From Deltaproteobacteria bacterium (lineage in GTDB: Bacteria; Desulfobacterota_D; UBA1144; Nemesobacterales; UBA2774): a stretch of 64,000 nt of DNA. The position numbers were made by a program, and so were the translations under genes. The notes beneath the pieces are model-generated. The model was given only the letters and a program-made list of their open reading frames with translations. It ran no database searches and had not been told where the DNA came from. The stretch is from NCBI GenBank assembly GCA_040223695.1, contig JAVKFU010000015.1, positions 106,534 through 170,533 of the forward strand. The letters are read 5' to 3'. Shown here piece after piece: positions 15,720 to 35,962 of the stretch (position 1 is its first letter; every line of letters begins with the position of its first letter).

Positions 15720-16089
15720 ACATCTGGTTGAATCTCTTTCCCGGAAAAATGATACAGACCGCAAACTGAAGTTACACGGGAGGATGAATAAGCCGTGACA
15801 TTGCAACAAAAAATCTTTACCGTTCGCCTGCTTCTGCCCGCAGGGCTTATGTCTGATGTCCGAATTTAAGACAATTGTCGTCGAGAGCTGCGCGACCGGT
15901 GCGGGCTGATTACCGGCGCAAGCTGAATTTTTGAAATACGGTGAATGCATGAACCTGCTGCTCTAATGGCTGTATGATTTCACTGCATATTGTTTTACAC
16001 GCGTGGCGGTATTGAATTTCCTCTTACGGGGTAAAGAACTCGCCCTCCTGACTCAGTTGGTATGCTGCTTGCAAGTTATTTCATGATAA

Positions 16090-16671
16090 ATGACCGGATA
16101 CCCAAAAGAGCTTGTCCTGAAGGATAAAACCAGGGTTATCACCAGACCTGTAAGTAAGAATGATCTGGAGTTTCTGGTGAAATTTTTCTCGACGATTCCG
16201 AAGACGGACCTCCTCATATACAAGGACGATGTAACTAAATGGGAGGGCCTTCAGGATTGGTTTATCAGCTCGAACTACAAAAAGGTGCTGGAACTCGTAT
16301 GTACAAATAACGAGGATATTATCGCGAAAGGTACATTGCATACCGAGGGGATTTACTGGCCTCACGCCGCTGAGGTAAAGTTAATGGTTCATCCGAGTTA
16401 CAGGGGAAAGGGATTGGGCTCACAATTATTCAATTTGCTTCTCTACGAGGGTTTGAAGCACCGTTTCCAAAAAATTATAGTCAGATATGTTCCCGACAAC
16501 CTTAGTTTTACCCGTATTCTGGATCATTACGGGTTTAATCCTGAAACCGTGCTCAACTGTTATGTTGTAGATGAGATTACAAAGGAGAAGAAAGATCTTG
16601 TAATTGCGTCCTATGACCTTCAGAACTGGGAGAGGAGATTCGAGTTCTATACTTTCATCTACACGAAGTAA
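16090..16671 (+). CDS. GNAT family N-acetyltransferase.
   Basis: Acetyl-CoA binding motif (HPSYRGKGLGSQLF). Confidence 0.65.
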   Translation: MTGYPKELVLKDKTRVITRPVSKNDLEFLVKFFSTIPKTDLLIYKDDVTKWEGLQDWFISSNYKKVLELVCTNNEDIIAKGTLHTEGIYWPHAAEVKLMVHPSYRGKGLGSQLFNLLLYEGLKHRFQKIIVRYVPDNLSFTRILDHYGFNPETVLNCYVVDEITKEKKDLVIASYDLQNWERRFEFYTFIYTK

Positions 16672-16772
16672 AAGATATGCGATTCAACTAAATTGTAAGC
16701 AAAGTTATAAAGTGATATTCTGATAATTAATCTGAAAGAATTCAGGACGGTTACACTCGCCAAGGACTTGTT

Positions 16773-18689
16773 ATGAAGAAAAGAATTACCAAAAAAGATG
16801 AGCCTCCGGGCGCGATTGAGTCCCACCGGACGGCTGGGGACCCCGAAACAGAATTCCTTGAGAATCAATACAGCTTTATTGTTGAGTCCGTTCCGAGCGG
16901 CATAGTAATGACCGATAATAAGGGGAAGATTATTTTCGTTAATTCACTCGTAAACAGGATGTTCGGATATGAGGAAAGCGAGCTGGTCGGCAGAAACATT
17001 GATGAGCTCGTACCGGACAGATATAAGAAGGGGCATGCCGCGCATAGGAAATCGTTCTTGTCGGCGCCCGAGACAAGACCTATGGGCAAAGGGAGGGATC
17101 TTTTCGCCAGAAGAAAGAACGGAAGCGAATTTCCTGTGGAGATAGGCCTTAATCCTGTGAAAACCGAGAGAGGATTGGTGGTCGTGAGCACAATAGTGGA
17201 TATCACTGACCGAAGAGCCGCTGAAATAAAATTGAAGGAGGAGCAGGACAGGACGCAAAGGTACCTTGACGTGGCGGAGGTTATTTTTCTGGGGCTTGAC
17301 GGCAAGGGTATTGTAACGCTCATAAACAGGAAGGGCGCAGAGATTCTCGAGTGCTCCGAGGAAAAAATATTAGGAAAGAGCTGGTTTGATAAATTCATCC
17401 CTCGCGAGGAACGTAACGAAGTATTAGAGGTTCATAGGAGAGTGATGAGGGGAGAATCCATAAACATTGCGTTTCATGAAAACAAGATAATCTCCGAATC
17501 GGGGAAGAAAATCGACGTGCTGTGGCACAACACCGCAATAGAGGGTGAAAATGGCAGAGTTATCGGTACTTTGAGCTCCGGGGTCGATATTACGGACCGG
17601 AAATATACCGAAAGGCGGCTTCAGGAAAGGGAAGAGAGATTGCGCAGTATCATGGATAATACTACCGACGCGATTCTGGTATTTGACAACGACGGCCTTA
17701 TTGAAACGATAAACAAAGCGGCTCTGAAGCTATTTGCCATTAATGACGAAGATGAAATCAAAAATATCCATGAGATAATTACACCCGAGCACAGGGACAG
17801 CTTTGCAGAGAGGCTTGAGAGGTCCAGAAACGGGGCCGCGATTTCGGACTATGAAACGGAGATGATCAAGAAAGACGGCTCCAGGATTCCCGTGAGTATC
17901 AGTCTTGTTTACATGGATCTGGATCGAGGCAAGTATATCGAGACAATAAGAGATATTTCTGCCAGGATTTCTATGCGCAAAAAGATCATAGAGCTCGAGA
18001 AATCTCAAATAATCGGGAAGATGGCGGAAGGTTTCGCTCACCATATGGGTACTCCTCTCGCTTCGATGCTTCTCAGGGTTCAGATGCTGAAAGAAGACAT
18101 ACCGTCTCTCCCGGAATGTGAGAGTGTCGGGGAAAAACTGGACTCTATAGAGAGGCAGATTTTGTATGGTCAGAAGGTGATTCAAAGGCTTTTGAGGTTT
18201 GTCAGCCAGCCGGGCAGTGAGAAAAGCTCGGAAAAAGTCTCTTCGTTGCTCGGTGAGTCGATCGATATGGTGAGACCCCTTCTCAAAAAAAAGATGATAG
18301 AGGTCGAGCTTGATGTTGAAGAGGGCTTGAGCATTTATGTGGACTCAAATCTGATAAATCTTGTCTTTACCGATATTATCATAAACGCTGTGGACGCTAT
18401 GCCTGACGGGGGAGTCCTTACGGTTGCAGCAGCGAACGATTATGATAACGGGTTAGCGAATATCAGAATCAATGATACGGGTAAAGGTATTTCGAAAGAG
18501 ACGATTTCCTTTGTTTTCGAGCCTTTTTTTACAACCAAGCCTGCGGGAAAGGGGACAGGGCTCGGACTTACAGTTGCCAAAAGGATTGTAAATGATCACG
18601 GAGGGGAAGTGAGTATAAGAAGCATGGAGGGGAAGGGTACGACGGTTATAATAAAACTTCCTTTATCCGCGGAGGGATATTCGTCTTGA
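16773..18689 (+). CDS. PAS-domain sensor histidine kinase.
   Basis: Several PAS repeats, HisKA (EGFAHHMGTPLASM) and HATPase_c (NDTGKGIS...GTGLGLTVAKRIVNDHGG). Confidence 0.85.
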   Translation: MKKRITKKDEPPGAIESHRTAGDPETEFLENQYSFIVESVPSGIVMTDNKGKIIFVNSLVNRMFGYEESELVGRNIDELVPDRYKKGHAAHRKSFLSAPETRPMGKGRDLFARRKNGSEFPVEIGLNPVKTERGLVVVSTIVDITDRRAAEIKLKEEQDRTQRYLDVAEVIFLGLDGKGIVTLINRKGAEILECSEEKILGKSWFDKFIPREERNEVLEVHRRVMRGESINIAFHENKIISESGKKIDVLWHNTAIEGENGRVIGTLSSGVDITDRKYTERRLQEREERLRSIMDNTTDAILVFDNDGLIETINKAALKLFAINDEDEIKNIHEIITPEHRDSFAERLERSRNGAAISDYETEMIKKDGSRIPVSISLVYMDLDRGKYIETIRDISARISMRKKIIELEKSQIIGKMAEGFAHHMGTPLASMLLRVQMLKEDIPSLPECESVGEKLDSIERQILYGQKVIQRLLRFVSQPGSEKSSEKVSSLLGESIDMVRPLLKKKMIEVELDVEEGLSIYVDSNLINLVFTDIIINAVDAMPDGGVLTVAAANDYDNGLANIRINDTGKGISKETISFVFEPFFTTKPAGKGTGLGLTVAKRIVNDHGGEVSIRSMEGKGTTVIIKLPLSAEGYSS

Positions 18690-20041
18690 GCACTGAAAAA
18701 TTCAGGGTACTTGTAGTAGACGATGACAAGGAATTTGTCGAAGCGGTCAAGGAGCTTCTCAATCGTAATAATTACGATGTAATTACCGCCTATTCCGGGG
18801 CGGACGCGCTTGAAAAAGCCCGGGAAGTACCGGATATAAAGCTGGCGCTTCTCGATCTGGTAATGCCTCTTATGGACGGCTTTGCACTGCTTGAAAAGCT
18901 CAGAGACTTGATCCCGGAGTTAACCGTTATAATCGTTACGGGTCAGGGTACGGTTCAGGCGGCTGTCGATGCGATAAAACGCGGCGCTGCGGATTTCATT
19001 ACCAAGCCTTTTGATAAAGATGTACTTTTGAAAAAACTGGATGTTGTCAGAAAGGCTCAGGAGCTTGAGAGCAGAGTGGGGACATTGAAGGAGCTCCTAT
19101 CGGAAAAGTACGGATTCGATAACATCATAAGCAGCTCGAAGGTGATGAAAACCGTTTTTGAAAAGGCCTCGGCCGCAGCCCATAGCAACGCGCCTGTATT
19201 TATTGTGGGGGAGACGGGAACGGGGAAAGAATTATTAGCCAAGGCCATACATCTAAGAGGCGGGAGAGCCGCACATCCTTTTGTGGGGGTGAATTGCGGT
19301 GCTATACCGAAAGAGCTCCTTGAGTCGGAACTTTTCGGTTACCGGAAAGGGGCTTTTACCGGAGCGGTAAGGGATCACGAAGGGCTTTTCATTGCCGCCG
19401 ATAAAGGAACGATATTTCTCGATGAGATAGGTGAAATGCCCAAAGACCTTCAGGTGAGGATGTTGAGGGTGCTTGAAGAATACAAAGTCAGGCCCATAGG
19501 ACATACGAAGGAGATAGCGCTTGATGTGAGGGTTGTAGCGGCGAGCAATCATACAATAGATGAGCTGAAGAATAAATATTTGAGGGAGGATCTTTTTTTC
19601 AGGCTTGCCGTAATAGTCATCGAGCTGCCGCCGCTCCGGGAAAGGAAAGGTGATATACCCTTGTTAATCGATCACTTTATCGGAAGGTTTAATAACAAGT
19701 ATTCAAAGAGAATAAGGGGGCTCTCGGAGGGAGCTTTCAGTTCACTCTATAATTATCATTTCCCGGGGAACATAAGGGAGCTCGAGAATTTGATTGAAGG
19801 CATAATAGCTGTCACGTCCCTGAGCAAGAACACTATTACCGAAAAGGACCTGAAGGCGCATCTCCTCTGGCAGCAGTCCAAAACCCCGGAGCACCAGCTC
19901 CTCTCACTGGATAGGCTCGAAAAATTCGCGCTTGAGCAGGCCCTTCGGGAATCCAGGGGGAACAAGTCAAAGGCTGCGGAGCTCCTGGGCATATCAAGAG
20001 ATACTCTTTACAGAAAACTAAAGCTCTATAAAGTCGATTGA
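18686..20041 (+). CDS. sigma-54-dependent two-component response regulator (NtrC family).
   Basis: REC domain (VLVVDDD...DLVMPLMDG), AAA+ sigma-54 activator (GETGTGKELLAKAIH, ESELFGY, GAFTGA) and Fis HTH. The TTG start overlaps the upstream kinase stop (TTGA). Confidence 0.85.
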   Translation: MSTEKFRVLVVDDDKEFVEAVKELLNRNNYDVITAYSGADALEKAREVPDIKLALLDLVMPLMDGFALLEKLRDLIPELTVIIVTGQGTVQAAVDAIKRGAADFITKPFDKDVLLKKLDVVRKAQELESRVGTLKELLSEKYGFDNIISSSKVMKTVFEKASAAAHSNAPVFIVGETGTGKELLAKAIHLRGGRAAHPFVGVNCGAIPKELLESELFGYRKGAFTGAVRDHEGLFIAADKGTIFLDEIGEMPKDLQVRMLRVLEEYKVRPIGHTKEIALDVRVVAASNHTIDELKNKYLREDLFFRLAVIVIELPPLRERKGDIPLLIDHFIGRFNNKYSKRIRGLSEGAFSSLYNYHFPGNIRELENLIEGIIAVTSLSKNTITEKDLKAHLLWQQSKTPEHQLLSLDRLEKFALEQALRESRGNKSKAAELLGISRDTLYRKLKLYKVD

Positions 20042-20303: not shown

Positions 20304-20318
20304 TGGCACCCGCTTTGC
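20304..20318 (+). promoter_or_regulatory. sigma-54 (RpoN) -24/-12 promoter.
   Basis: TGGCAC-ccgct-TTGC matches the TGGCAC-N5-TTGC consensus with correct GG/GC spacing. It is 52 nt upstream of the ATG at 20370 and is followed by a GAGGAGG RBS. Confidence 0.7.
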
Positions 20319-20369: not shown

Positions 20370-21230
20370 ATGGTTAAAAGGACTGTTTTATTTTCATTCT
20401 TGATTGCCGTGCTAGGTTTTTGTATTTGCGGTGTGTATGCATATGATGCATCCGCACAGGGGCAGGAAAACATGAAGGCGGAAATACAACAGCTCAAGCA
20501 GATGATGGGTCAGATGCAGGGCAGAATGGGGGAGATGCAGAGCAGAATAGATGAGCTTGAGCAAAAGAACATCATGCTCGAGCAGCAAGCTCAGGAGAGA
20601 GCAGAGGCAGCGGTTATAGTTGAAGAAACGTCCGTGACCGAAAAGACCGCAGATGAGCCTTTCGGTGGTGAGTTTGCCGTTACGATAGGCGCTCAGACAG
20701 GTCCTTTTAAGACAGGCACGGGTTTTTATTTGTCAGCCGAGCTTGGAGTTCCTTTATATAAAAACCTGGGGCCGGGAAAATTACTCGGTATTATGAGCTT
20801 CGGATGGGCAAGAACGGATGATGACATAACATTCGAGCCCACCGTCAACGCGATCGCGCCCGGCACACTTCCTACCCAGACAAGTGTAAATCTGGATACG
20901 GCAACAATTCTTCTGGGGCTAAAGTATAAACTTGAGGCTCACAGGATAGTTCAGCCTTTTGTTTTGGGAGGGCCGAGCATGAATCTGTTCTTCAATGAGA
21001 GCGACCCGGGAAGCCAAGTGGGAGGCATTGCTCCTCAGCCCAATATACTCCAGAAAAGAGGATTTCCGTCAGGTCAGGGAAATGCCGAGCTGGGAATTAC
21101 ACTTGGCGGAGGCGTTGATTTTAATGTCACACACAAGATATTTGTAGGGGCGCAGGGGTTATTTAACTGGGTCGACAGAGACAACGGTGCTTTCGGAACC
21201 TATGGCGGAAGGTTAGGATTCAGGTTTTAG
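20370..21230 (+). CDS. Outer-membrane beta-barrel protein with an N-terminal coiled-coil segment.
   Basis: Signal peptide, a Q/M-rich coiled coil and alternating amphipathic strands that end in the typical OMP C-terminus ..GGRLGFRF. Confidence 0.6.
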   Translation: MVKRTVLFSFLIAVLGFCICGVYAYDASAQGQENMKAEIQQLKQMMGQMQGRMGEMQSRIDELEQKNIMLEQQAQERAEAAVIVEETSVTEKTADEPFGGEFAVTIGAQTGPFKTGTGFYLSAELGVPLYKNLGPGKLLGIMSFGWARTDDDITFEPTVNAIAPGTLPTQTSVNLDTATILLGLKYKLEAHRIVQPFVLGGPSMNLFFNESDPGSQVGGIAPQPNILQKRGFPSGQGNAELGITLGGGVDFNVTHKIFVGAQGLFNWVDRDNGAFGTYGGRLGFRF

Positions 21231-21280: not shown

Positions 21281-21568
21281 ATCCTCGGAAACATTTTTAA
21301 AGGCTCGGAACTGAGTGTTTCATTGAAAAAATAAGACATTATATCTCGGTTTAGGACTCGGCTCTAATTACGTTCCTTTAAAAGATCAAACGCGTGAAGG
21401 AATAGCGGGGGACTGAGCAGCGGATTTCATTTAGCATTCCCATGAAAACTTCTTATGACCATACAGGTTATACCTGGAGGAAATGAGAAATCAGCAGCTA
21501 ACTGGTAAACAATATTCTTTGAGGCAGAAGAGCTCAGGATGAATCATTAAAACACACTATGTGTGTGC

Positions 21569-22285
21569 CTATCTGGTCTGATGTGTATGATGAGCGTGTT
21601 TATCGCTCGTTGAAGGGATGAAGTGAATGGAGAAATTAACCAGCCCCACAAGAATTAAGATTATCCCCGCTACAACTGTCAGTCTCCTCGGCGCTCTCCG
21701 CATGCCCTTCTTGTATATAAAAGGGAATGCGGATAAGGCGGGTACTGTTCCGAGCCAGAATATGAAGAGTACCGCCGCTCCGTAGAGCGGGCTTTTTGTC
21801 GCTACCGACCCTATTACGAATATGTAGACCCAGCCGCAGGGGATGAATCCGTTTACAATTCCGAGTGTAAGGGACGCCGTTGGCTTGCTCTGCGTTAAGG
21901 ACCATTTTGCCGGGAGCCGGAGGAGTGAAGAGATGAACTTCGCCGGTATCAACTCAAGCGGCTTTCCCGTAATAAGCTTATAGCCTGTATAGATAAGGAA
22001 TGCCGATATTATTATTGCAGAAAATGTAGCTACAACGGGGTAGTTATTTGAGAGAAAAGCTTCCCCCAGGAGTCCCGCAAGTGCGCCGAGCGCCAGGTAG
22101 CTAAACAGCCGCCCTAGGTGATAGAGGCTCAGGTAGCCGAAATTATTGTTCACCGTAACGGCTATGGGCCCGCACATCGTAACACAGTGCGAGCTCCCGA
22201 GCAGGCTCGCTATAAAAACACCCAGCGGCACCGATAAAAAGGACCACTGCGCTATTAAATCATTAAATAAACCTGGGTCCGACAA
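21569..22285 (-). CDS. DsbD_2/UreH-like polytopic membrane protein. It is the last gene of the cco operon.
   Basis: About 6 TM helices with a conserved SSHCVTMCGPI motif characteristic of the cytochrome-biogenesis-like DsbD_2 family. The family assignment is from memory. Confidence 0.5.
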   Translation of the reverse strand: MSDPGLFNDLIAQWSFLSVPLGVFIASLLGSSHCVTMCGPIAVTVNNNFGYLSLYHLGRLFSYLALGALAGLLGEAFLSNNYPVVATFSAIIISAFLIYTGYKLITGKPLELIPAKFISSLLRLPAKWSLTQSKPTASLTLGIVNGFIPCGWVYIFVIGSVATKSPLYGAAVLFIFWLGTVPALSAFPFIYKKGMRRAPRRLTVVAGIILILVGLVNFSIHFIPSTSDKHAHHTHQTR

Positions 22286-23687
22286 GTTTTACGTCCTCGC
22301 CCGTTTTAATTGTATTGTCCTTAGGGTCAATGAAATTGAGTCTTATTGACCGTGTCCCCTGACTGCCCGTAACATCTTGAGGAAACTTTACGAAAAAGTG
22401 GACAGTAGCGTCCTTTCCCGCCTCAAGATTAATTATCTCGTTCTGCGAAACGATCTCGACGTTTTTTTTCTTCCATTCCTGAGGCAGCGTCATCTTGAGG
22501 CTTACATTGTCAAAAGTCTGATTTTTCATGTGCATTTTAAAGTGGTTTATTATTTGCTCGCCCTGCTCGTTTTTAATCACCTGAAAGGGAGAATCCTTGC
22601 CTCTTAGAACGGTGATGATTATATCCTCACGCTTCGATACGGAAAAAACGAGAGCCGCCATTACGGCGGCGAGCAGCACGGTATATATCGCTACTCTCGG
22701 TCTGAACCATTTCGTGGTCAATCTCTCGAGGCTGTTTCCCGTTGCGTATCTGATCAACCCCTTCGGCTTGTCGATCTTTTCCATTACCTCATCACAGGCG
22801 TCTATACAGGCGGTGCAGCCTATGCACTCGAGCTGAAGGCCGTTTCTTATGTCAATCCCCGTGGGACATACCGACACGCACTTATAACAATTTATACAGT
22901 CGCCCTCGGCCTCACCGTGCCCGGTTTTCCCCCTCCGGGGCTCGCCCCTGACCGGGTCGTATGAAACCGTAAGCGAATCGTCGTCCATGAGCACCGACTG
23001 GAACCTGCCGTACGGGCACATTATGATGCAGAACTGCTCCCTGAACCAGCCGAAGTCGAACAGAAAAACCGCTGTCAGAAAGGCCATTATGACAAAGATG
23101 GTCCAGTTCTGCTGCGGGTTGTGCCGGGTCATTTCCACAAGCCTGTCGGCGCCTACAAAATAGGCGAGAAAGCTGTGAGCGATAATCAGGCTCACTATAA
23201 GAAAGAGGGACCAGAGCACAGAGAGTTTAAAGAATTTTTTTATTCCCCAGGGCGCCCTTGCGAGGTTACGCTGCTGGATGTGGCTCCCGATAATCCAGTA
23301 CTCAAGCCTTCTGAATATACCGTCTATAAAAACAGTCTGAGGGCACGCCCATCCGCACCATACCCTTCCCCACACGGCGGTTATGAACGCAAGCCCTATT
23401 GTCAGAAACGCCAGTATAAAAAATATGAGAGGGGCGTCATGCGCGAAAAAAGTGAGACCGAATATAGAAAATTTTCTTTCTCCGATATTGAGGAGCAGGG
23501 CTTGATGTCCCCCGATTTTGATCCACGGAAGAAGGAGGAAAAAGATAACCAGAAAAATCTCGGTTACCGTTCTTGCTTGTCTCCAGAAACCCTTTACCCG
23601 CTCAGGGAATATAAAAACACGCTTGCCGGTCTCGTCCATTGTAGCCGGGCGTTCATCAGGCAGTTGTCTCTGATCCAGTACTTTCAT
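22263..23687 (-). CDS. ccoG: cbb3 oxidase accessory protein CcoG/FixG (membrane-bound 4Fe-4S ferredoxin).
   Basis: Motifs GRVWCGWACPQ and two ferredoxin CxxCxxCxxxCP motifs (CINCYKCVSVCP, CIGCTACIDAC). The start is chosen at the ATG that overlaps the ccoP stop (ATGA). The 39-aa Arg-rich extension in the ORF track is probably spurious. Confidence 0.8.
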   Translation of the reverse strand: MKVLDQRQLPDERPATMDETGKRVFIFPERVKGFWRQARTVTEIFLVIFFLLLPWIKIGGHQALLLNIGERKFSIFGLTFFAHDAPLIFFILAFLTIGLAFITAVWGRVWCGWACPQTVFIDGIFRRLEYWIIGSHIQQRNLARAPWGIKKFFKLSVLWSLFLIVSLIIAHSFLAYFVGADRLVEMTRHNPQQNWTIFVIMAFLTAVFLFDFGWFREQFCIIMCPYGRFQSVLMDDDSLTVSYDPVRGEPRRGKTGHGEAEGDCINCYKCVSVCPTGIDIRNGLQLECIGCTACIDACDEVMEKIDKPKGLIRYATGNSLERLTTKWFRPRVAIYTVLLAAVMAALVFSVSKREDIIITVLRGKDSPFQVIKNEQGEQIINHFKMHMKNQTFDNVSLKMTLPQEWKKKNVEIVSQNEIINLEAGKDATVHFFVKFPQDVTGSQGTRSIRLNFIDPKDNTIKTGEDVKLVGPRFI

Positions 23688-24253
23688 TTGCGCTCTATCT
23701 TCTCTCCCTGAGGAGCTTTCGCCCCGGGGGGATCGGTCCCCTGCAAACCATGTACGTAAACCGCGGTGCTCTCTATTACGTCCGCGGGTATGACGCCTTT
23801 CCACGGAGGCATACCCTTGTCGGGCACACCCTCGTTCACGACGGTAAGTATGGACGATATAGATCCGTCTCCGTGTATCCAGTACTCATCCGTCAGGTTA
23901 GGCCCGATAAGTCCCTGCCCCTTATCCCCGTGGCAGGGCATGCATTTGGCCATGAATTCCGCCTTCCCCTGCTCGGTAACTTCCCGGTTTGTAACCAGAG
24001 CGACCAGGTCCTCTTCGGTTTTTTCCCGGGCGGACCCGAGGGCCTCCTGCTGCTCCTCCCTTATAACACTCATCTCGCTCGCCAGCTCCTCGTCCAGCGT
24101 CGGTCCCCCCATAAACTGATAATAGACGAAATAGATAACCGCGAAAATTATGGTTATATAAAAGGTCGCAAGCCACCAGCCGGGGAGGGGATTATTAAGC
24201 TCTCTTATCCCGTCGTACTCATGATCTTTAATTAATTCGTCTTTTTCGGTCAT
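23684..24253 (-). CDS. ccoP: cbb3-type cytochrome c oxidase subunit CcoP/FixP, apparently mono-haem.
   Basis: CcoP N-terminus (DHEYDGIRELNNPLPGWW), one CMPCHG haem motif and a GMPPW Met-ligand region. It is only 189 aa. Confidence 0.75.
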   Translation of the reverse strand: MTEKDELIKDHEYDGIRELNNPLPGWWLATFYITIIFAVIYFVYYQFMGGPTLDEELASEMSVIREEQQEALGSAREKTEEDLVALVTNREVTEQGKAEFMAKCMPCHGDKGQGLIGPNLTDEYWIHGDGSISSILTVVNEGVPDKGMPPWKGVIPADVIESTAVYVHGLQGTDPPGAKAPQGEKIERK

Positions 24254-24393
24254 TGATTTTCCTCCTTTTTTGGCTCACCCTCATCTTCGAGGGGTAGCAT
24301 CTCCATTTCATGAATCTCCTCTTTCGGTCTCTTGAGAGCCCATATCACAAGAACGACAAATGCCGTTAAAAAGATAATCAGGGCTATTATCAC
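24250..24393 (-). CDS. ccoQ: Small CcoQ-like single-TM subunit. It is below the ORF-track size cut-off.
   Basis: A GTG-initiated 47-codon ORF (IIALIIFLTAFVVLVIWALKRPKEE...) lies between ccoNO and ccoP. Its stop overlaps the ccoP ATG (ATGA). Confidence 0.5.
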   Translation of the reverse strand: MIIALIIFLTAFVVLVIWALKRPKEEIHEMEMLPLEDEGEPKKEENQ

Positions 24394-24422
24394 TATTTCC
24401 GCATTCTGAAAATACGATAGAG

Positions 24423-26585
24423 CTACCTGTTTGATGTCGTTACCTCCTCGGTAGCGGTCTTTTTGCCGAGGCTCTGCAAATAAGCGATAAGCGCGACGAC
24501 CTCGGTGTCCTTTATCAAAGTAAGTGAGGGGTCCTGGCTGAGCAGCTCCTCGTATATTCGGGCAGCCTCCTTTTCCGCGTTTATGTCGGCGTCTGAAACC
24601 TCCCGGTCGTCGTAAGGCACACCCAGCATTTTCATCACGCTGAATTTCTTTCTCAGTATGTGATAATCGATTTTATTTGCCGCGAGCCACGGGTAAGAGG
24701 GCATGATGGAATTGGGCGTAATTTCCCTTGGGTTTATCATATGGCGGAGATGCCACATATCCGGATATTTACCTCCGACCCTGGCAATGTCCGGCCCCGT
24801 TCTTTTTGAGCCCCATTGAAAGGGCCTGTCATACATCGATTCCGCTATAGTGGAGCTTGGACCGTACCTGAGCACATCGAACGGGAGCTTCCTTATCATC
24901 TGCGAGTGGCACACGTAGCACCCCTCCCTGATGTAAATATCCCTTCCCGCGAGCTCAAGCGGCGTGTACGGCTCCGTTTTTTCAGCCGACGGGAGATACT
25001 TGTAGATCGAGAGAGTGGGTATTATTTCGATTACGGAACCCACCGCGATTGATATGAAAAGAAGCACGGTGAAAACGAGGCTAAGCGCCTCAAGTTTTCT
25101 GTGGCCGCTACCGACCGCCGTCGGGTCGGCTGAAAGCGGGGCGGCTTCAACTACGGTGACTTTTTTCTCCCTGGGCGCGTGTTTAATGGTTACCCATACG
25201 TTGTATATGAGCATGAGGAAGCCCGTGAGGAAAAGCGCGCCGCCTGCGAACCTGACCCAGTAAAGAGGCACTATTCTCATCACCGTTTCAACAAAGTCGG
25301 GATATACGAGCTGTCCGTTCTCGCCTATTGCCTGCCACATGAGCCCCTGAGTAATGCCGCTTGCCCACATCGAGATGTAGTACAGAAGAATTCCGAGAAA
25401 TCCTATCCAGAAATGCCAGTTCATGAGTCTCTGGCTCCGCATCTTCGTATTCCAGAGCTTCGGCACCAGGTAGTAGATTATTCCGAAGGTAAGGAACCCG
25501 TTCCATCCGAGTGTGCCGCCGTGCACATGGCCGATTATCCAGTCGGTATAGTGGGCGAGGGAGCTGACCGATTTTATCGACAGTAAAGGGCCTTCGAAGG
25601 TGGACATACCGTAAAAAGTCACTGCCACGGCCAGGAATTTAATAATCGGGTCCGTGCGGAGCTTGTGCCATGCTCCCCTGAGCGTGAGAAGGCCGTTAAT
25701 CATGCCGCCCCAGCTCGGCGCCCAGAGCATTACGCTGAAAATCATGCCGAGGGTCTGCGCCCAGTCGGGAAGCGCGGTATTCAAAAGATGGTGAGGCCCC
25801 GCCCATATGTATATGAAAACGAGGGACCAGAAATGGATGATTGAGAGCTTATAGCTGTAAATAGGCCTGTTGGCTGCTTTGGGCACGTAGTAGTACATCA
25901 GTCCCAGAAACGGCGTCGTGAGGAAAAAAGCGACGGCGTTATGGCCGTACCACCACTGAACGAGAGCGTCCTGTACTCCGGCGTACACAGGATAGCTTTT
26001 AAGAAACGCGACCGGTATTTCGATCGAGTTCACTATATGGAGCAAGGCCACCGTAATAATCGTGGCTATGTAAAACCATATCGCTACGTACAGATGCTTT
26101 ACTCTTCGTATGGCGATTGTTCCGAAAAAATTAGCGGCGAAGACTACCCAGACGACCGCGATTGCCACATCGAGCGGCCACTCAAGCTCAGCGTATTCCT
26201 TACTCATGGTGTAGCCTAAGGGCAGTGTAATCAGCGCGCCTACGATAATAAGCTGCCAGCCCCAGAAATGGAACTTGCTCAGAAAATCGGAGTAGTTACG
26301 TGTTTTAAGGAGCCTCTGCGTAGAGTGATATATGCCCGCGAAGATTATATTTCCGGCAAACGCGAAAATTGCAGCGTTTGTGTGGAGAGGCCTTATCCTC
26401 CCGAACGTAAGCCACGGGATCTCCAGATTTGCCGGCCAGAATGCCAGCTGGAGCGCTGCAAGAAGCCCGACCATAAACGCCGCCGCTCCCCAGAAAATTG
26501 TTGCATAGAGAAACATCTTTACGATTTCATCGTCGTAAACAACCTTCTCCAGAACTGTGGATTTAGGTCCGTTGTCCTGACTCAT
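24423..26585 (-). CDS. ccoNO: cbb3-type cytochrome c oxidase fused subunit I/II (CcoN-CcoO fusion).
   Basis: A 12-TM haem-copper oxidase domain with His ligands, followed by a CcoO-like mono-haem domain (EGCYVCHSQMIRKL...YPDMWHLRHMINPREI). Confidence 0.85.
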   Translation of the reverse strand: MSQDNGPKSTVLEKVVYDDEIVKMFLYATIFWGAAAFMVGLLAALQLAFWPANLEIPWLTFGRIRPLHTNAAIFAFAGNIIFAGIYHSTQRLLKTRNYSDFLSKFHFWGWQLIIVGALITLPLGYTMSKEYAELEWPLDVAIAVVWVVFAANFFGTIAIRRVKHLYVAIWFYIATIITVALLHIVNSIEIPVAFLKSYPVYAGVQDALVQWWYGHNAVAFFLTTPFLGLMYYYVPKAANRPIYSYKLSIIHFWSLVFIYIWAGPHHLLNTALPDWAQTLGMIFSVMLWAPSWGGMINGLLTLRGAWHKLRTDPIIKFLAVAVTFYGMSTFEGPLLSIKSVSSLAHYTDWIIGHVHGGTLGWNGFLTFGIIYYLVPKLWNTKMRSQRLMNWHFWIGFLGILLYYISMWASGITQGLMWQAIGENGQLVYPDFVETVMRIVPLYWVRFAGGALFLTGFLMLIYNVWVTIKHAPREKKVTVVEAAPLSADPTAVGSGHRKLEALSLVFTVLLFISIAVGSVIEIIPTLSIYKYLPSAEKTEPYTPLELAGRDIYIREGCYVCHSQMIRKLPFDVLRYGPSSTIAESMYDRPFQWGSKRTGPDIARVGGKYPDMWHLRHMINPREITPNSIMPSYPWLAANKIDYHILRKKFSVMKMLGVPYDDREVSDADINAEKEAARIYEELLSQDPSLTLIKDTEVVALIAYLQSLGKKTATEEVTTSNR

Positions 26586-26767
26586 TTATCCTTTTCCTCC
26601 TTCGAATCTTGATTTCTTGGTTCGGTCTCGTAATCATCTATTAACATTCTGTGACCGGGGGTCTTGAGGTCGTCCCACTGCCCCTTTCGTGCGGCCCATA
26701 TGAAGGCAAGCAGGAAAATTAACGCCATGGCTATAGAAATTCCAAGCGTCAAGAAAATTATATTCAC
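26582..26767 (-). CDS. ccoS: cbb3 oxidase maturation protein CcoS/FixS.
   Basis: A 61-aa single-TM protein (FLTLGISIAMALIFLLAFIWAARKGQWDDLKTP). Overlaps both neighbours by 4 nt. Confidence 0.75.
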   Translation of the reverse strand: MNIIFLTLGISIAMALIFLLAFIWAARKGQWDDLKTPGHRMLIDDYETEPRNQDSKEEKDK

Positions 26768-29217
26768 GTCTTCGCCACCTTTCTCTTGGTATCGAGAATC
26801 GTCTGTCCGTATAATGTAGAGCCGATCAGAAGCAGCGAGCTTAGCGGCATAAGGACCGCCGCCGCGAGAGGCGTTATAAAGCCCGTCAGCGCGAATCCCC
26901 CCGCAGCTACGTTATAAATTATTGAAAAAACCGTGTTTCTTCTTATGGTTTCGCCAGTCGCATTGCCGTGATCGATAAGGTCCAGAATTGTGAAAAGGTC
27001 GTTGTTGAGTATGTACGCGTCGGATACTTTGAGACTTTCCTCGACGCTCCCCTGTATTGCTACGCTCACGTCGGATGAGGACAGCGCGCCTGCGTCATTC
27101 AGTCCGTCCCCTATCATAAGGGAGTTCCGGTTTTCACTGATTATTCTCGATTTGCCCTCGGGTATTTCCTCCCAGTACGCCTGTGAGTATGGGATTTGAA
27201 GCTTATCGGCCACATGCTTCACATTATTCTCCTTGTCGCCGGAAAGTATGAAAACTTTATACCCCCTCACCACAAGCTCGTTTATTACGAACTTGGCGTC
27301 TTCTTTCAGCGTATCCCCCAGAACTATTTCCGAGACCGGTTTTCCGTCTTTATGGACCACTATTTTAGTAGTGATAATTTCGTTCAGATCGTTTTGGCCG
27401 ATTACACTATTCTCGGACGTTAACCGGTAATGGTGCCCGTCTGCCACGGCTTCAATCCCTTCGGAGTATATGTGTCTGAAATCTCTGACTTCGGGCAGCG
27501 GGTAGTTGTTGTCCTTGAGATGAGCTGTGAGGGTGCGGGCTATCGGATGGTTCGATTTCTTCTCTATTGCGAGGATTGCGGCATAGTCTTTCTCCGAAAG
27601 CTCCCCGGAGTTCCACTTGAGGATTTTGAATACCCCGTTTGTAAGCGTGCCGGTCTTGTCGAAGAAGATTTTTTCGACAGACGGGAGCTTCTCGAAGTTC
27701 CCGGCGTCTTTAATCAGAAATCCCTTGGCCATCCCCGATTTCAGCGACAGTCCGTAGGAAAGCGGCAGTGCGAATACAAAGGCGCAGGGACAGGATATAA
27801 GCGTAAAGGCGATTACCCTTTCTAGCGCCTCGGAAGTATTGTAAAGATATGATATAGTGAAGAACGTAGCCACCGCGGCGATTCCCACTATCAGTGTGAA
27901 GACCGTGGAGTATTTGTCGCTGTATGTCGAGAGGCCGATTTTACCCCTGTAATTGCTTTCGACCTGATCCAGTATCTTCCCGATTCTGGTGGATTTCCCG
28001 GTTTTGGCTACTTTAAGAACCGCTTCGTCAGACTCGAGTATCGAGCCTGCGAATACGCTGTCTTTCCTCCTGACTGTCTCGGGAATGTTCTCGCCCGTAA
28101 GCACGGACAGGTTTAGATCGGCGTTTCGGGATAAAAGCTCGCCGTCAGCCGGAACGCGCTCCCCTTTGTGGAGCTTTATCCTCTGCCCCGGCCTGAGATT
28201 CTCGACGGGCTGATAAAAGAACTGCCGAGCCTTATCATCCCATATAAGAACCCGATTGGATGAAAACAGGCTCCGGCTCACCGGTTCTTTTCGCACTACC
28301 CTGTCCTGTACCGTTTTAAGAAGATATCTGCTTCCGAGAAGGAGAAGCACGAATGCGGTTATCGAGTCAAAATATATCTGGTCGCTTCCGTTAAAGTAGT
28401 TGTAAGCGCTCAGTACGAAACCGATCACGATGACGAACACGATCGGTATATCGACCGTAGCGCGTTTCATTCTGAGTGAGCTCAGTACGCTCTTGTAAAA
28501 GGGATAAGCGCAGTATGTGACCACGGGCAGAGACAGAAGAAGGTTGAGCAGCATAAAGTTCTCCGCAAACACTCCCCCCGCGCCGGAATAGACCGCCGCC
28601 GAAAGGAGCATTATATTTCCTGCGCAAACTGCCGCTACAGATAGTCTTATGAGCGATTTTCTGTTTTCCCGCCGTTTTAATTCCCGCGCCTCCTCATCGA
28701 TCCTTACGGGATGAGCCCTGTAACCGAATTTCTTCGCTATTACGGGGAAGGATGAGAAATTCCGTTCGGGGGTGAAATTAACTGTTGCGGTATTATCGGA
28801 CATGTCGAGCGAGACGGATTCGATTTCAGGGGTGTAATCGGGGATTTTCTCTATCAGCCACAAACATGCCGCACACTCGATTCCCTCCACGTAGAAATTC
28901 ATGGAGAGGGGGCTTTCTGCCGCCGTGTATAATTCGATAAAACTTTTCTGATTCAGGTATTCATAGTTCTCGGTTGATTCCGTATCTATTGGCGCGCCCG
29001 TTTTTCCGATATCCTGGGCGTCTTTGATTTTGTAGTAATTATCCAGGCCGAGAGTGTGCAGAAGCTCATAGACGGACATACATCCCCTGCAGCAGAAATT
29101 CCCGGATTCGGAAACTACCGTGTTCGAGGAATCAAGCTCCTCCCCGCAATGCAGGCAGCGGGCGGATTCCGGTTTGCTTTTGTGAGCGCTGTCTCTGGAA
29201 ACTGTAGTGATTGCCAT
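26764..29217 (-). CDS. ccoI: Copper-translocating P1B-type ATPase CcoI/FixI.
   Basis: N-terminal Cys-rich and HMA-like region (ECAACLW), TM CPC motif (ISCPCAFVFALP), DKTGTLT phosphorylation site and a GDGLNDAGAL hinge. Confidence 0.85.
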   Translation of the reverse strand: MAITTVSRDSAHKSKPESARCLHCGEELDSSNTVVSESGNFCCRGCMSVYELLHTLGLDNYYKIKDAQDIGKTGAPIDTESTENYEYLNQKSFIELYTAAESPLSMNFYVEGIECAACLWLIEKIPDYTPEIESVSLDMSDNTATVNFTPERNFSSFPVIAKKFGYRAHPVRIDEEARELKRRENRKSLIRLSVAAVCAGNIMLLSAAVYSGAGGVFAENFMLLNLLLSLPVVTYCAYPFYKSVLSSLRMKRATVDIPIVFVIVIGFVLSAYNYFNGSDQIYFDSITAFVLLLLGSRYLLKTVQDRVVRKEPVSRSLFSSNRVLIWDDKARQFFYQPVENLRPGQRIKLHKGERVPADGELLSRNADLNLSVLTGENIPETVRRKDSVFAGSILESDEAVLKVAKTGKSTRIGKILDQVESNYRGKIGLSTYSDKYSTVFTLIVGIAAVATFFTISYLYNTSEALERVIAFTLISCPCAFVFALPLSYGLSLKSGMAKGFLIKDAGNFEKLPSVEKIFFDKTGTLTNGVFKILKWNSGELSEKDYAAILAIEKKSNHPIARTLTAHLKDNNYPLPEVRDFRHIYSEGIEAVADGHHYRLTSENSVIGQNDLNEIITTKIVVHKDGKPVSEIVLGDTLKEDAKFVINELVVRGYKVFILSGDKENNVKHVADKLQIPYSQAYWEEIPEGKSRIISENRNSLMIGDGLNDAGALSSSDVSVAIQGSVEESLKVSDAYILNNDLFTILDLIDHGNATGETIRRNTVFSIIYNVAAGGFALTGFITPLAAAVLMPLSSLLLIGSTLYGQTILDTKRKVAKT

Positions 29218-29315
29218 TGTATTGGTATTCTGCTCTTATCGCGAAAATTAGAGCAATAACAATGCCAATTCATACACGAATGATATTGGGATTTAAGCTA
29301 TAGGGCAGATGTCCG

Positions 29316-29335
29316 GTGTCAGATTATAAGACAGT
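29316..29335 (-). promoter_or_regulatory. Candidate promoter/operator of the cco operon. A palindrome embeds a TATAAT -10 box (minus strand CTGTCTTATAATCTGACAC).
   Basis: TGTC-N9-GACA inverted repeat about 100 nt upstream of ccoI. It is 16 of 18 identical to a second copy at 32695..32713. Confidence 0.45.
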
Positions 29336-29631
29336 AAATTTCTTTTGTGATTAAAGATATGACGGGATTATAAATAAAGTTGGTGCAGCCAAATATGCTG
29401 CGGCAAATCGGTTTCGGATAAATAAAGCCCTGTCAGTCAAACTCACTACTCATTAACTAAAAATCAGATAAAGAAACATGATAAAGAATAAACCTATAGA
29501 AATCAGGAACAAAAAAGATGCGAAATTTTGATTTGTTGAATCTTTCATGATGATCTCCTCTTGCTATTCAAATTCCATTATAAAACGATTCCGTGGTCAT
29601 AATCAACACTATTATTAAAATTGCCGAGTTG

Positions 29632-35671: not shown

Positions 35672-35962
35672 GTCGTTTTAGTGTTCCGGTGCTATTGTTA
35701 GCGCGTATATGAAGCACATAGTACAAGCAGGTGCTTTTCTGATCAATATCCGGAAAAATTTCCCTGTTAAAAAACCCTGCATTGTTGATTTATTCACAGA
35801 TGCTGCTGTTCGATTTCTTACAATTACATATAGTCCGAACATCTGGCTTTTTGTCTAATCCGCTGTCAAAACTCGCTTTATCCTTCTTCAATAATATGGC
35901 ACGCCTATTGCACTAACAATATAATAAGGAGCTTTTAAATTTACACATAGGAGGTAGTAATT

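Follow-up and report, generated by a model that had tools for sequence, protein, structure and literature searches.

A cbb3-type oxidase operon with fused ccoNO and a trailing DsbD_2-family gene in an uncultured Thermodesulfobacteriota bacterium

Identity and layout of the operon

A cbb3-type cytochrome oxidase cluster with fused catalytic subunits, a small haem subunit and assembly genes placed ahead of the structural genes raises the question of whether it is an innovation of one organism or a member of a known cluster type, and of what its last gene, which encodes a DsbD_2-family membrane protein, contributes. The cluster in question lies within a 64,000-nucleotide stretch of an uncultured Thermodesulfobacteriota bacterium (assembly GCA_040223695.1, contig JAVKFU010000015.1, positions 106,534 to 170,533; hereafter the window, whose own numbering is used throughout). 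Seven minus-strand open reading frames (ORFs) run head to tail from 21569 to 29217, and Pfam and NCBIfam searches together with direct reading of the sequence give the order ccoI-ccoS-ccoNO-ccoQ-ccoP-ccoG-dsbD2. With a probability of about 0.85, the region is judged to be a single operon of approximately 7.7 kb, laid out as is typical of the fused-ccoNO clade, for a haem-copper oxygen reductase of the C family (cbb3 type) and the machinery that inserts its copper. The cluster appears complete and intact, and its predicted product is a respiratory oxidase of high oxygen affinity with copper-delivery helpers.

The gene identities are assigned because of the Pfam and NCBIfam matches, the PDB alignments to CcoN, CcoO and CcoP, and the presence of all metal-ligand motifs. 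Curated cut-offs were exceeded in both Pfam and NCBIfam by the products of ccoI, ccoS, ccoNO and ccoG, and in Pfam by the domains of CcoP and by the DsbD_2 protein. A first-pass annotation had listed the same seven genes at the same positions, and its assignments (CcoI, CcoS, a CcoN-CcoO fusion, a CcoQ-like peptide, a mono-haem CcoP, CcoG and DsbD_2) all proved right. The four 4-nt overlaps it reported were also found where it had placed them, namely GTGA at ccoI/ccoS (26764-26767) and ATGA at ccoS/ccoNO (26582-26585), ccoQ/ccoP (24250-24253) and ccoP/ccoG (23684-23687, provided that ccoG starts at ATG 23687); the TTGA it also mentioned occurs at no junction. The ccoG and dsbD2 genes overlap by 23 nt, with dsbD2 starting at TTG 22285. 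No RNA family was matched by Rfam between 15000 and 31000, and scans for sigma-70 promoters and terminators performed no better than on shuffled sequence. Directly past the dsbD2 stop (21535-21570, minus strand) lies a short ACACAC-ATA-GTGTGT hairpin followed by TTTT, a weak terminator-like structure not listed by the consensus terminator scan.

Catalytic subunits

The ccoNO gene (24423..26585, minus strand) is one ORF of 720 aa encoding catalytic subunit I fused to the mono-haem subunit II. Its product matches NF011053 ('bifunctional cbb3 subunit I/II') over residues 11-716 with 1164.4 bits (cut-off 1080), as well as TIGR00780 (661.6 bits, cut-off 583.15) and TIGR00781 (236.4 bits, cut-off 200.65). 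PDB alignments place a full-length CcoN at residues 9-473 (E 1e-182 to CcoN of solved structure, aligned over its full length) and a full-length CcoO at residues 493-708, separated by a linker of approximately 20 residues, so that the fusion proposed in the first-pass annotation is confirmed by both subunits aligning in full within one 720-aa ORF. The motifs RPLH68, WWYGH215, IY259IWAGPH264H265, GH353VH355 and C556YVCH560 are all present, the last being the haem site of the CcoO part. These we take to supply the metal and haem ligands by motif correspondence with CcoN of Pseudomonas stutzeri, not by residue-level structural alignment. The single polypeptide is thus predicted to carry haem b, the haem b3-CuB centre and the c-haem of CcoO.

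The ccoP gene (23684..24253, minus strand) encodes a putative membrane-anchored mono-haem cytochrome c subunit of 189 aa, with a FixP_N anchor at residues 9-49 (PF14715, 7.7e-21) and a single Cytochrome_CBB3 domain (PF13442, 1.6e-10). The protein aligns with CcoP of solved cbb3 structures, and its haem domain aligns to both the first and the second domain of di-haem CcoP. M148PPW is likely to provide the axial methionine. Only two cysteines occur in the protein, and a second c-haem site is impossible because both sit in the one CxxCH motif, C104-M-P-C-H108; the mono-haem state suggested earlier therefore stands, with no degenerate second site. Judged by its sequence, this CcoP is the one-domain variant, a form seen at 77 of 78 related loci.

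The layout among related loci

A scan with CcoNO, limited to one genome per species, returned more than 600 fused homologues. Eighty loci were kept, and the seven proteins of the window were mapped onto them; the denominators given here vary with the flank or gene available. The 80 loci belong to Thermodesulfobacteriota, Bdellovibrionota, Bacteroidota, Verrucomicrobiota, Ignavibacteriota, Calditrichota, Myxococcota and SAR324, the closest being from a Thermodesulfobacteriota metagenome-assembled genome (88% identity in CcoNO). The common order is ccoI-ccoS-ccoNO-ccoQ-ccoP-ccoG-(fixH)-dsbD2. The ccoS gene stands directly upstream of ccoNO in 53 of the 74 loci with enough flank. In 63 of 69 loci dsbD2 follows ccoG within 1.1 kb, and three others have it at a different place in the cluster. 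A single CxxCH is found in CcoP at 77 of 78 loci, the longer CcoP proteins of Bacteroidota differing by an extra linker only. The fused ccoNO, the one-haem CcoP, the upstream ccoI-ccoS pair and the trailing DsbD_2 gene are thus the majority state among the 80 loci, and the claim of the first-pass annotation that the order is unusual does not hold.

Published descriptions agree with this. In Prosthecochloris the cbb3 cluster encodes a CcoP of one domain and has an additional conserved gene, tauE (PMC10158934), the fused CcoNO of Melioribacter roseus has been treated as a typical cbb3 enzyme (PMC5492636), and the gammaproteobacterium Kangiella carries the cluster ccoNOQP-ccoG-fixH-ccoI-ccoS-TauE (PMC6000758). 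NCBIfam also holds a model dedicated to the CcoNO fusion, NF011053. By comparison of these sequences, the apparent oddities are best described as lineage norms for a large group of non-proteobacterial bacteria, and the window as an addition to a known cluster type.

The CcoQ-like peptide and its start codon

A small single-helix CcoQ-like peptide is predicted to be encoded between CcoNO and CcoP (24250..24435, minus strand). At least 70 of 78 loci have a homologue in this position, and 23 of 36 aligned homologues match Pfam FixQ (PF05545; best 4.5e-11). The peptide of the window scores below threshold against this family (E 0.065 for a 47-aa and 0.13 for a 61-aa version), as do its orthologues in the related loci L001 (2.6e-6, 27.7 bits) and L083 (6.6e-6, 26.4 bits; cut-off 29), and NCBIfam has no family for it. 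Conserved residues are F8, F12 and P34, the last within an LPL[DE] motif.

The 47-codon ORF of the first-pass annotation is real, though its start is not where it was placed: the conserved frame extends 14 codons upstream of GTG 24393, to an invariant ATC (24435-24433). In the window and five close relatives (L001, L082-L085) these codons are conserved as protein, I-K-Q-(V/I/L)-A-L-(S/A)-Y-F-(Q/E)-N-x-E, with 54, 18 and 98 differences at codon positions 1, 2 and 3. The ATC is invariant in the same six loci and is preceded at 7-8 nt by GGAGG or GGGGG (GGAGG at 24447-24443 in the window), and four loci have an in-frame TGA five codons upstream of it. At exactly this position other phyla have ATG (MKQ...). 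CcoQ is therefore most likely a 61-aa peptide initiated at AUC, with the predicted N-terminal peptide MKQVALSYFQNAE..., its gene overlapping the 3' end of ccoNO, stop codon included, by 13 nt. In E. coli, AUC initiates at 1-2% of the level of AUG, with methionine inserted (bioRxiv 10.1101/063800), which suggests low or termination-coupled expression of ccoQ. The conserved ATC start would also account for ccoQ being missed or truncated by gene callers in this lineage.

Three alternative accounts of the structural genes may be weighed together. The probability that errors of assembly or sequencing have made one gene out of separate ccoN and ccoO is negligible, since a single ORF is found in all 80 loci at 54-88% identity in independent assemblies, isolate genomes among them, the 720-aa gene is likewise called on the source contig and NF011053 is matched end to end; a frameshift origin of the fusion was ruled out. 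It is very improbable that the operon is organism-specific, newly rearranged and compacted, with its order, fusion and one-haem CcoP as unusual innovations. The layout does differ from the proteobacterial ccoNOQP plus ccoGHIS, but the same order and features are common in the 80 loci, across at least seven phyla, and are covered by the curated model and the publications cited above. A somewhat unlikely, though more substantial, alternative is that CcoQ is not made from AUC at all, being either only the 47-aa peptide initiated at GTG or, through a -1 frameshift near the end of ccoNO, part of a CcoN-O-Q triple fusion. GTG 24393 is a canonical start and was used by the gene caller of the source contig. 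Against it stand the protein-like conservation of the 14 upstream codons in six loci, with changes mostly at third positions, the ATG of other phyla at the exact position of the ATC, and the genes of L083 and L084, in which no canonical start codon (ATG, GTG, TTG) comes earlier than codon 29 or 33, a point beyond most of the helix. The triple fusion draws on the overlap of the ccoQ frame with the last ccoNO codons and is topologically possible, as CcoQ would be N-out by the positive-inside rule (KRPK after the helix) and the C-terminus of CcoO is periplasmic. It is made less likely by the lack of an X-XXY-YYZ slippery site, and the in-frame TGA upstream of the ATC in four loci also speaks against it. 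Initiation at AUC is accordingly retained as the preferred reading for ccoQ.

The trailing DsbD_2-family protein

The dsbD2 gene (21569..22285, minus strand) encodes a predicted six-transmembrane-helix protein of 238 aa with a TTG start. It matches Pfam PF13386 at 1.5e-40 (139.7 bits, cut-off 24.9) over positions 2-198 of the 199 in the profile, and the motif S31-S-H-C-V-T-M-C-G-P40 is present, in agreement with the family suggested for this seventh gene before any searches were made. The gene caller of the source contig used a later start, giving 220 aa; the 238-aa length is common to most close homologues, with N-terminal residues that include a nearly invariant W14. The residues that never vary in 67 cluster-linked homologues are H33, C34, M37 and C38 (HCxxMCGP), R59, Y63, G142 and P149-C150 (PCG). 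Cysteine occurs in the C-terminal tail of approximately 85% of homologues, typically as a terminal ...CH or ...CCH; in the window and its relatives the tail is instead rich in His (DKHAHHTHQTR, HNHHVHNTEH, HSHSHSH). The AlphaFold2 model has six transmembrane helices, the fourth broken at P149-C150. A charge count on the modelled helices gives 5 and 6 Lys/Arg in the loops after helices 3 and 5; because such loops should face the cytoplasm, both termini, and hence the tail, are predicted to lie in the periplasm. A PDB sequence search gave no match even at E 10, NCBIfam has no family for this protein, and literature searches on DsbD_2 or PF13386 with cbb3 returned nothing relevant to its role.

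The protein is most likely, on these sequence features, a copper-handling membrane conduit with its periplasmic tail as a metal-binding arm. This is favoured because the potential ligands are His, Met and Cys, the tail is of a metal type, the gene is coupled to that of a cupric reductase and the linkage is conserved. Two points weigh against it: the best structural neighbours are the electron or reductant carriers RnfA, CcdA and NqrE, not metal transporters, and the model is of moderate quality only (predicted local distance difference test score, pLDDT, 64). Transporters of the CcdA type depend on two cysteines within the membrane, which undergo exchange with thioredoxin-like proteins, and a rather unlikely alternative is that the DsbD_2 protein is a thiol-disulfide conduit of this kind, carrying reducing equivalents out of the cytoplasm into the periplasm and so keeping reduced the CxxCH cysteines of apo-CcoO and apo-CcoP or those of a periplasmic copper chaperone. 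However, His33 and Met37, which are invariant and stand beside the cysteines, and the Cys-His or His-rich periplasmic tail are soft-metal ligands for which CcdA has no need; no thioredoxin-like partner gene adjoins in the examined loci, and dsbD2 is here translationally coupled to ccoG. It is improbable that the protein is an unrelated passenger, a sulfite/anion exporter ('TauE/SafE', its name at NCBI and JGI) without any role in oxidase assembly. YeeE/YedE-type sulphur-transport genes do lie approximately 9 kb away in the window, but DsbD_2 is the sole Pfam match and TauE is not matched at E up to 10. In 63 of 69 loci, spread over several phyla, dsbD2 stays linked to ccoG or fixH, as it does in a gammaproteobacterium with another gene order (PMC6000758), and the dsbD2 start overlaps ccoG by the 23 nt noted above, all of which argues against a passenger. 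The copper conduit thus remains the favoured role.

Copper delivery and maturation genes

The product of ccoI (26764..29217, minus strand; 817 aa) is predicted to be a CopA2-type copper-exporting P1B ATPase. It has an N-terminal Cys-rich ATPase-cat_bd domain of the FixI type (PF12156, 1.4e-12), further matches to PF00403, PF00122 and PF00702, an HMA CxxC (C115), CPC at 476 and DKTGT at 520, and it exceeds the cut-off of TIGR01525 (350.5 against 346.25 bits). The ccoS gene (26582..26767, minus strand), whose GTG start overlaps the ccoI stop, encodes a 61-aa cbb3 maturation protein (FixS, PF03597, 2e-19; TIGR00847, 52.1 bits, cut-off 28.35).

The product of ccoG (22263..23687, minus strand; 474 aa from ATG 23687) is a predicted membrane ferredoxin-like cupric reductase. 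It scores 465.7 bits against TIGR02745 (cut-off 316.7) and has the Pfam domains Fer4_18, Fer4_5 and FixG_C, two CxxCxxCxxxC motifs (C264xxC267xxC270xxxC274 and C288xxC291xxC294xxxC298) and additional CGWAC and CIIMC motifs. Its start is ambiguous: the longest ORF begins at GTG 23804, and the gene caller of the source contig chose a later ATG than that at 23687. The 4-nt overlap with ccoP that results from ATG 23687 is kept in L001 and L083-L085.

It has been described that CcoH is essential in Rhodobacter and Campylobacter, and that the proteobacterial protein stays bound to the enzyme (PMC8267372). In the window the overlap of ccoG and dsbD2 leaves no room for ccoH between them. A hidden Markov model (HMM) of FixH was built from 38 cluster-linked ORFs, two of which were checked against Pfam FixH (PF05751; 6e-30 and 3e-19); searched with it, the 64-kb window yielded no FixH-like ORF in any reading frame (best E 2.3), and a six-frame search that took in 12 related loci besides the window was likewise without a match (best E 1.6). 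In these 12 loci, namely L001, the Bdellovibrionota loci and L017, ccoG abuts dsbD2 without FixH, as in the window. The lack of ccoH in the cluster, already remarked on in the first-pass annotation, is thereby borne out, and this lineage, like Bdellovibrionota, probably does without a cluster-encoded CcoH. In two verrucomicrobial loci (L063 12617-12778 and L076 9700-9825) the FixH position holds a 41-53 aa single-helix ORF ending in 'EVPL', which may be a minimal CcoH-like or a second CcoQ-like peptide.

Regulation

A predicted sigma-54-type (-24/-12) promoter, TGGCATtgttaTTGC (29253..29267, minus strand), was identified 36 nt upstream of the ccoI ATG. The sigma-54 consensus is matched three times in the window against 0.18 expected, and the window, L001 and L082-L085 all have an unchanged TGGCAT-N5-TTGC in this place, within intergenic DNA that has otherwise diverged. 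Approximately 45 nt further upstream lies a candidate enhancer or upstream activating sequence (UAS), TGTCTTATAATCTGACACCGGACA (29310..29333, minus strand), a conserved block in the otherwise diverged intergenic region of these six loci; its consensus in the relatives is the palindrome TGTCAGAnnnTCTGACA with a third CTGACA half-site. The UAS pattern occurs twice in the window against 0.00 expected. Its sole other match, a second UAS-like copy (15850..15873, minus strand), lies upstream of the genes of a GNAT protein, a kinase and a regulator (16090-20041), a position in which it could possibly serve autoregulation.

The kinase is a PAS histidine kinase (16773-18689, plus strand, from the gene table of the source contig) and the regulator an NtrC-type sigma-54 response regulator (18686-20041, plus strand) with the Pfam domains Response_reg, Sigma54_activat and HTH_8; both are convergent with the operon. 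The pair is the convergent neighbour of dsbD2 in five of five relatives (L001, L082-L085), other flanks differing. Proteobacterial cbb3 oxidases are usually controlled by FNR/FixK-type regulators. Matches to an FNR/FixK box in the window were fewer than expected by chance, none being plausibly placed upstream of ccoI, and literature searches on sigma-54 with cbb3 returned nothing relevant. The arrangement suggests enhancer-dependent control of the operon rather than FNR/FixK control, and, on the grounds of footprinting and synteny, the PAS kinase and NtrC-type regulator probably activate it via the sigma-54 promoter.

Several other elements were observed near these genes. Between the second UAS-like copy and the GNAT start codon at 16090 is a GG-N10-GC element, TGGTATGCTGCTTGCA (16058-16073, plus strand). 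It lies only approximately 17 nt upstream of that codon; either the promoter call or the GNAT start may be wrong, because a real promoter here would yield a nearly leaderless mRNA. Between the regulator and dsbD2 is an outer-membrane beta-barrel gene (20370-21230, plus strand) with a Met/Gln-rich N-terminal coiled region, MMGQMQGRMGEMQ, and a sigma-54-type match of its own (20304-20318, plus strand). L082 and L084 also have this gene, and L083 and L085 lack it; membership of the same regulon is conceivable, perhaps with a role in metal uptake. One further full match to TGGCAY-N5-TTGCW, and no more, occurs in the window, at 35897-35912 (plus strand, TGGCACGCCTATTGCA). Upstream of the ccoI promoter, a 31-aa hydrophobic ORF, MKDSTNQNFASFLFLISIGLFFIMFLYLIFS (29453-29548, minus strand), has a strong ribosome-binding site, AAGAGGAGA; it was dropped as a part of the system, since L001 shows no conservation of it and Pfam gave no match. 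In related loci, a multicopper-oxidase gene (L083 16569-17942) and a gene for a RoxA-like di-haem cytochrome c (L083 1-108, L084 15766-17442) lie near the cbb3 cluster; neither is among the window genes examined (roughly 11.6-32.2 kb).

Proposed working of the system

The roles of CcoG, CcoI, CcoS, CcoH and CcoQ have been described (PMC8475189, PMC8267372), and the following scheme may be drawn. From the sequences analysed here, transcription of the operon would begin at the sigma-54 promoter under the control of the adjacent PAS kinase and NtrC-type regulator, and ccoQ would be translated from AUC at a low level, coupled to the termination of ccoNO. By analogy with the Rhodobacter and Campylobacter studies, CcoG would on the cytoplasmic side reduce Cu(II) to Cu(I), which CcoI would pump out for insertion into CcoN, CcoS being needed for cofactor insertion. 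Electrons would enter at the haem of CcoP and pass to the haem of CcoO and then to haem b, oxygen being reduced at the haem b3-CuB centre. The DsbD_2 protein, again judged from the present sequences, would act as a conserved accessory factor of cbb3 clusters, of the eighth-gene type, most likely conducting copper and less likely reducing equivalents.

A broader proposal is tentative. In it, DsbD_2 is an unrecognised, near-universal cbb3 assembly factor from Proteobacteria to Bacteroidota, a conduit for copper or metal-linked redox that works with CcoG through HCxxMCGP, PCG and the tail, while this lineage has been rewired, with no CcoH, a CcoQ initiated at AUC, and a dedicated PAS kinase and sigma-54 activator rather than FNR/FixK.

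Several points count against parts of this picture. CcoP falls below the equivalog cut-off of TIGR00782 (102.9 against 179.95 bits), which a one-domain CcoP would be expected to do. For the sigma-54 promoter and enhancer, six related loci supply all the support. AUC initiates poorly in E. coli, and a shorter product initiated at GTG is also possible in the window; ccoH, for its part, could be encoded elsewhere in the genome.

In its architecture the operon is ordinary and offers nothing new; it is a clean example of a cbb3 cluster of the non-proteobacterial kind, from a phylum whose anaerobes are better known. It bears on three points of cbb3 biogenesis, namely the role of the almost always co-located DsbD_2 protein, the assembly of the oxidase where the otherwise essential CcoH is absent from the cluster, and whether a sigma-54 enhancer-binding system controls oxygen respiration in these bacteria. 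The lineage-specific details (no cluster FixH, the probable ATC start of ccoQ, the predicted sigma-54 control and the motifs and tail of DsbD_2) are worth a note.

Comparison with known systems

Fused clusters of Bacteroidota, Chlorobiota and Ignavibacteriota resemble the window in having structural and assembly genes together, the CcoNO fusion, a small CcoQ, a single-domain CcoP and a trailing DsbD_2 ('TauE') gene, the CcoNO proteins of Bacteroidota being 56-60% identical to that of the window. In contrast to the window, Bacteroidota loci encode a FixH of approximately 148 aa between ccoG and dsbD2 (Pfam 6e-30), and their CcoP is of approximately 300 aa, owing to a linker of approximately 100 residues that is absent from the 189-aa protein of the window. 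The probable ATC start of ccoQ, the predicted sigma-54 promoter and the adjoining two-component system set the window apart from clusters of this type. Closer likeness is seen in Bdellovibrionota (L002-L010, L013), where the order is identical, ccoG abuts dsbD2 without FixH, CcoP is likewise short (185-214 aa) and mono-haem, and CcoNO is 60-68% identical; here, however, ccoQ has a canonical ATG (MKQ...) and no sigma-54 consensus is found upstream of ccoI.

The systems of Rhodobacter capsulatus and Pseudomonas stutzeri (PDB 3MK7, 6XKW) share with the window the enzyme family, the assembly proteins and all the CcoN ligand motifs. They differ from it in having CcoN and CcoO as two proteins, a di-haem CcoP and assembly genes placed after the structural ones, as in the textbook proteobacterial layout of ccoNOQP and then ccoGHIS (PMC8632094, PMC8267372). 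When the trailing protein is set beside CcdA/DsbD, RnfA/E and NqrD/E, it is distinguished by HCxxMCGP in place of the CcdA motif, by its Cys-His or His-rich type of tail and by having no thioredoxin-like partner nearby.

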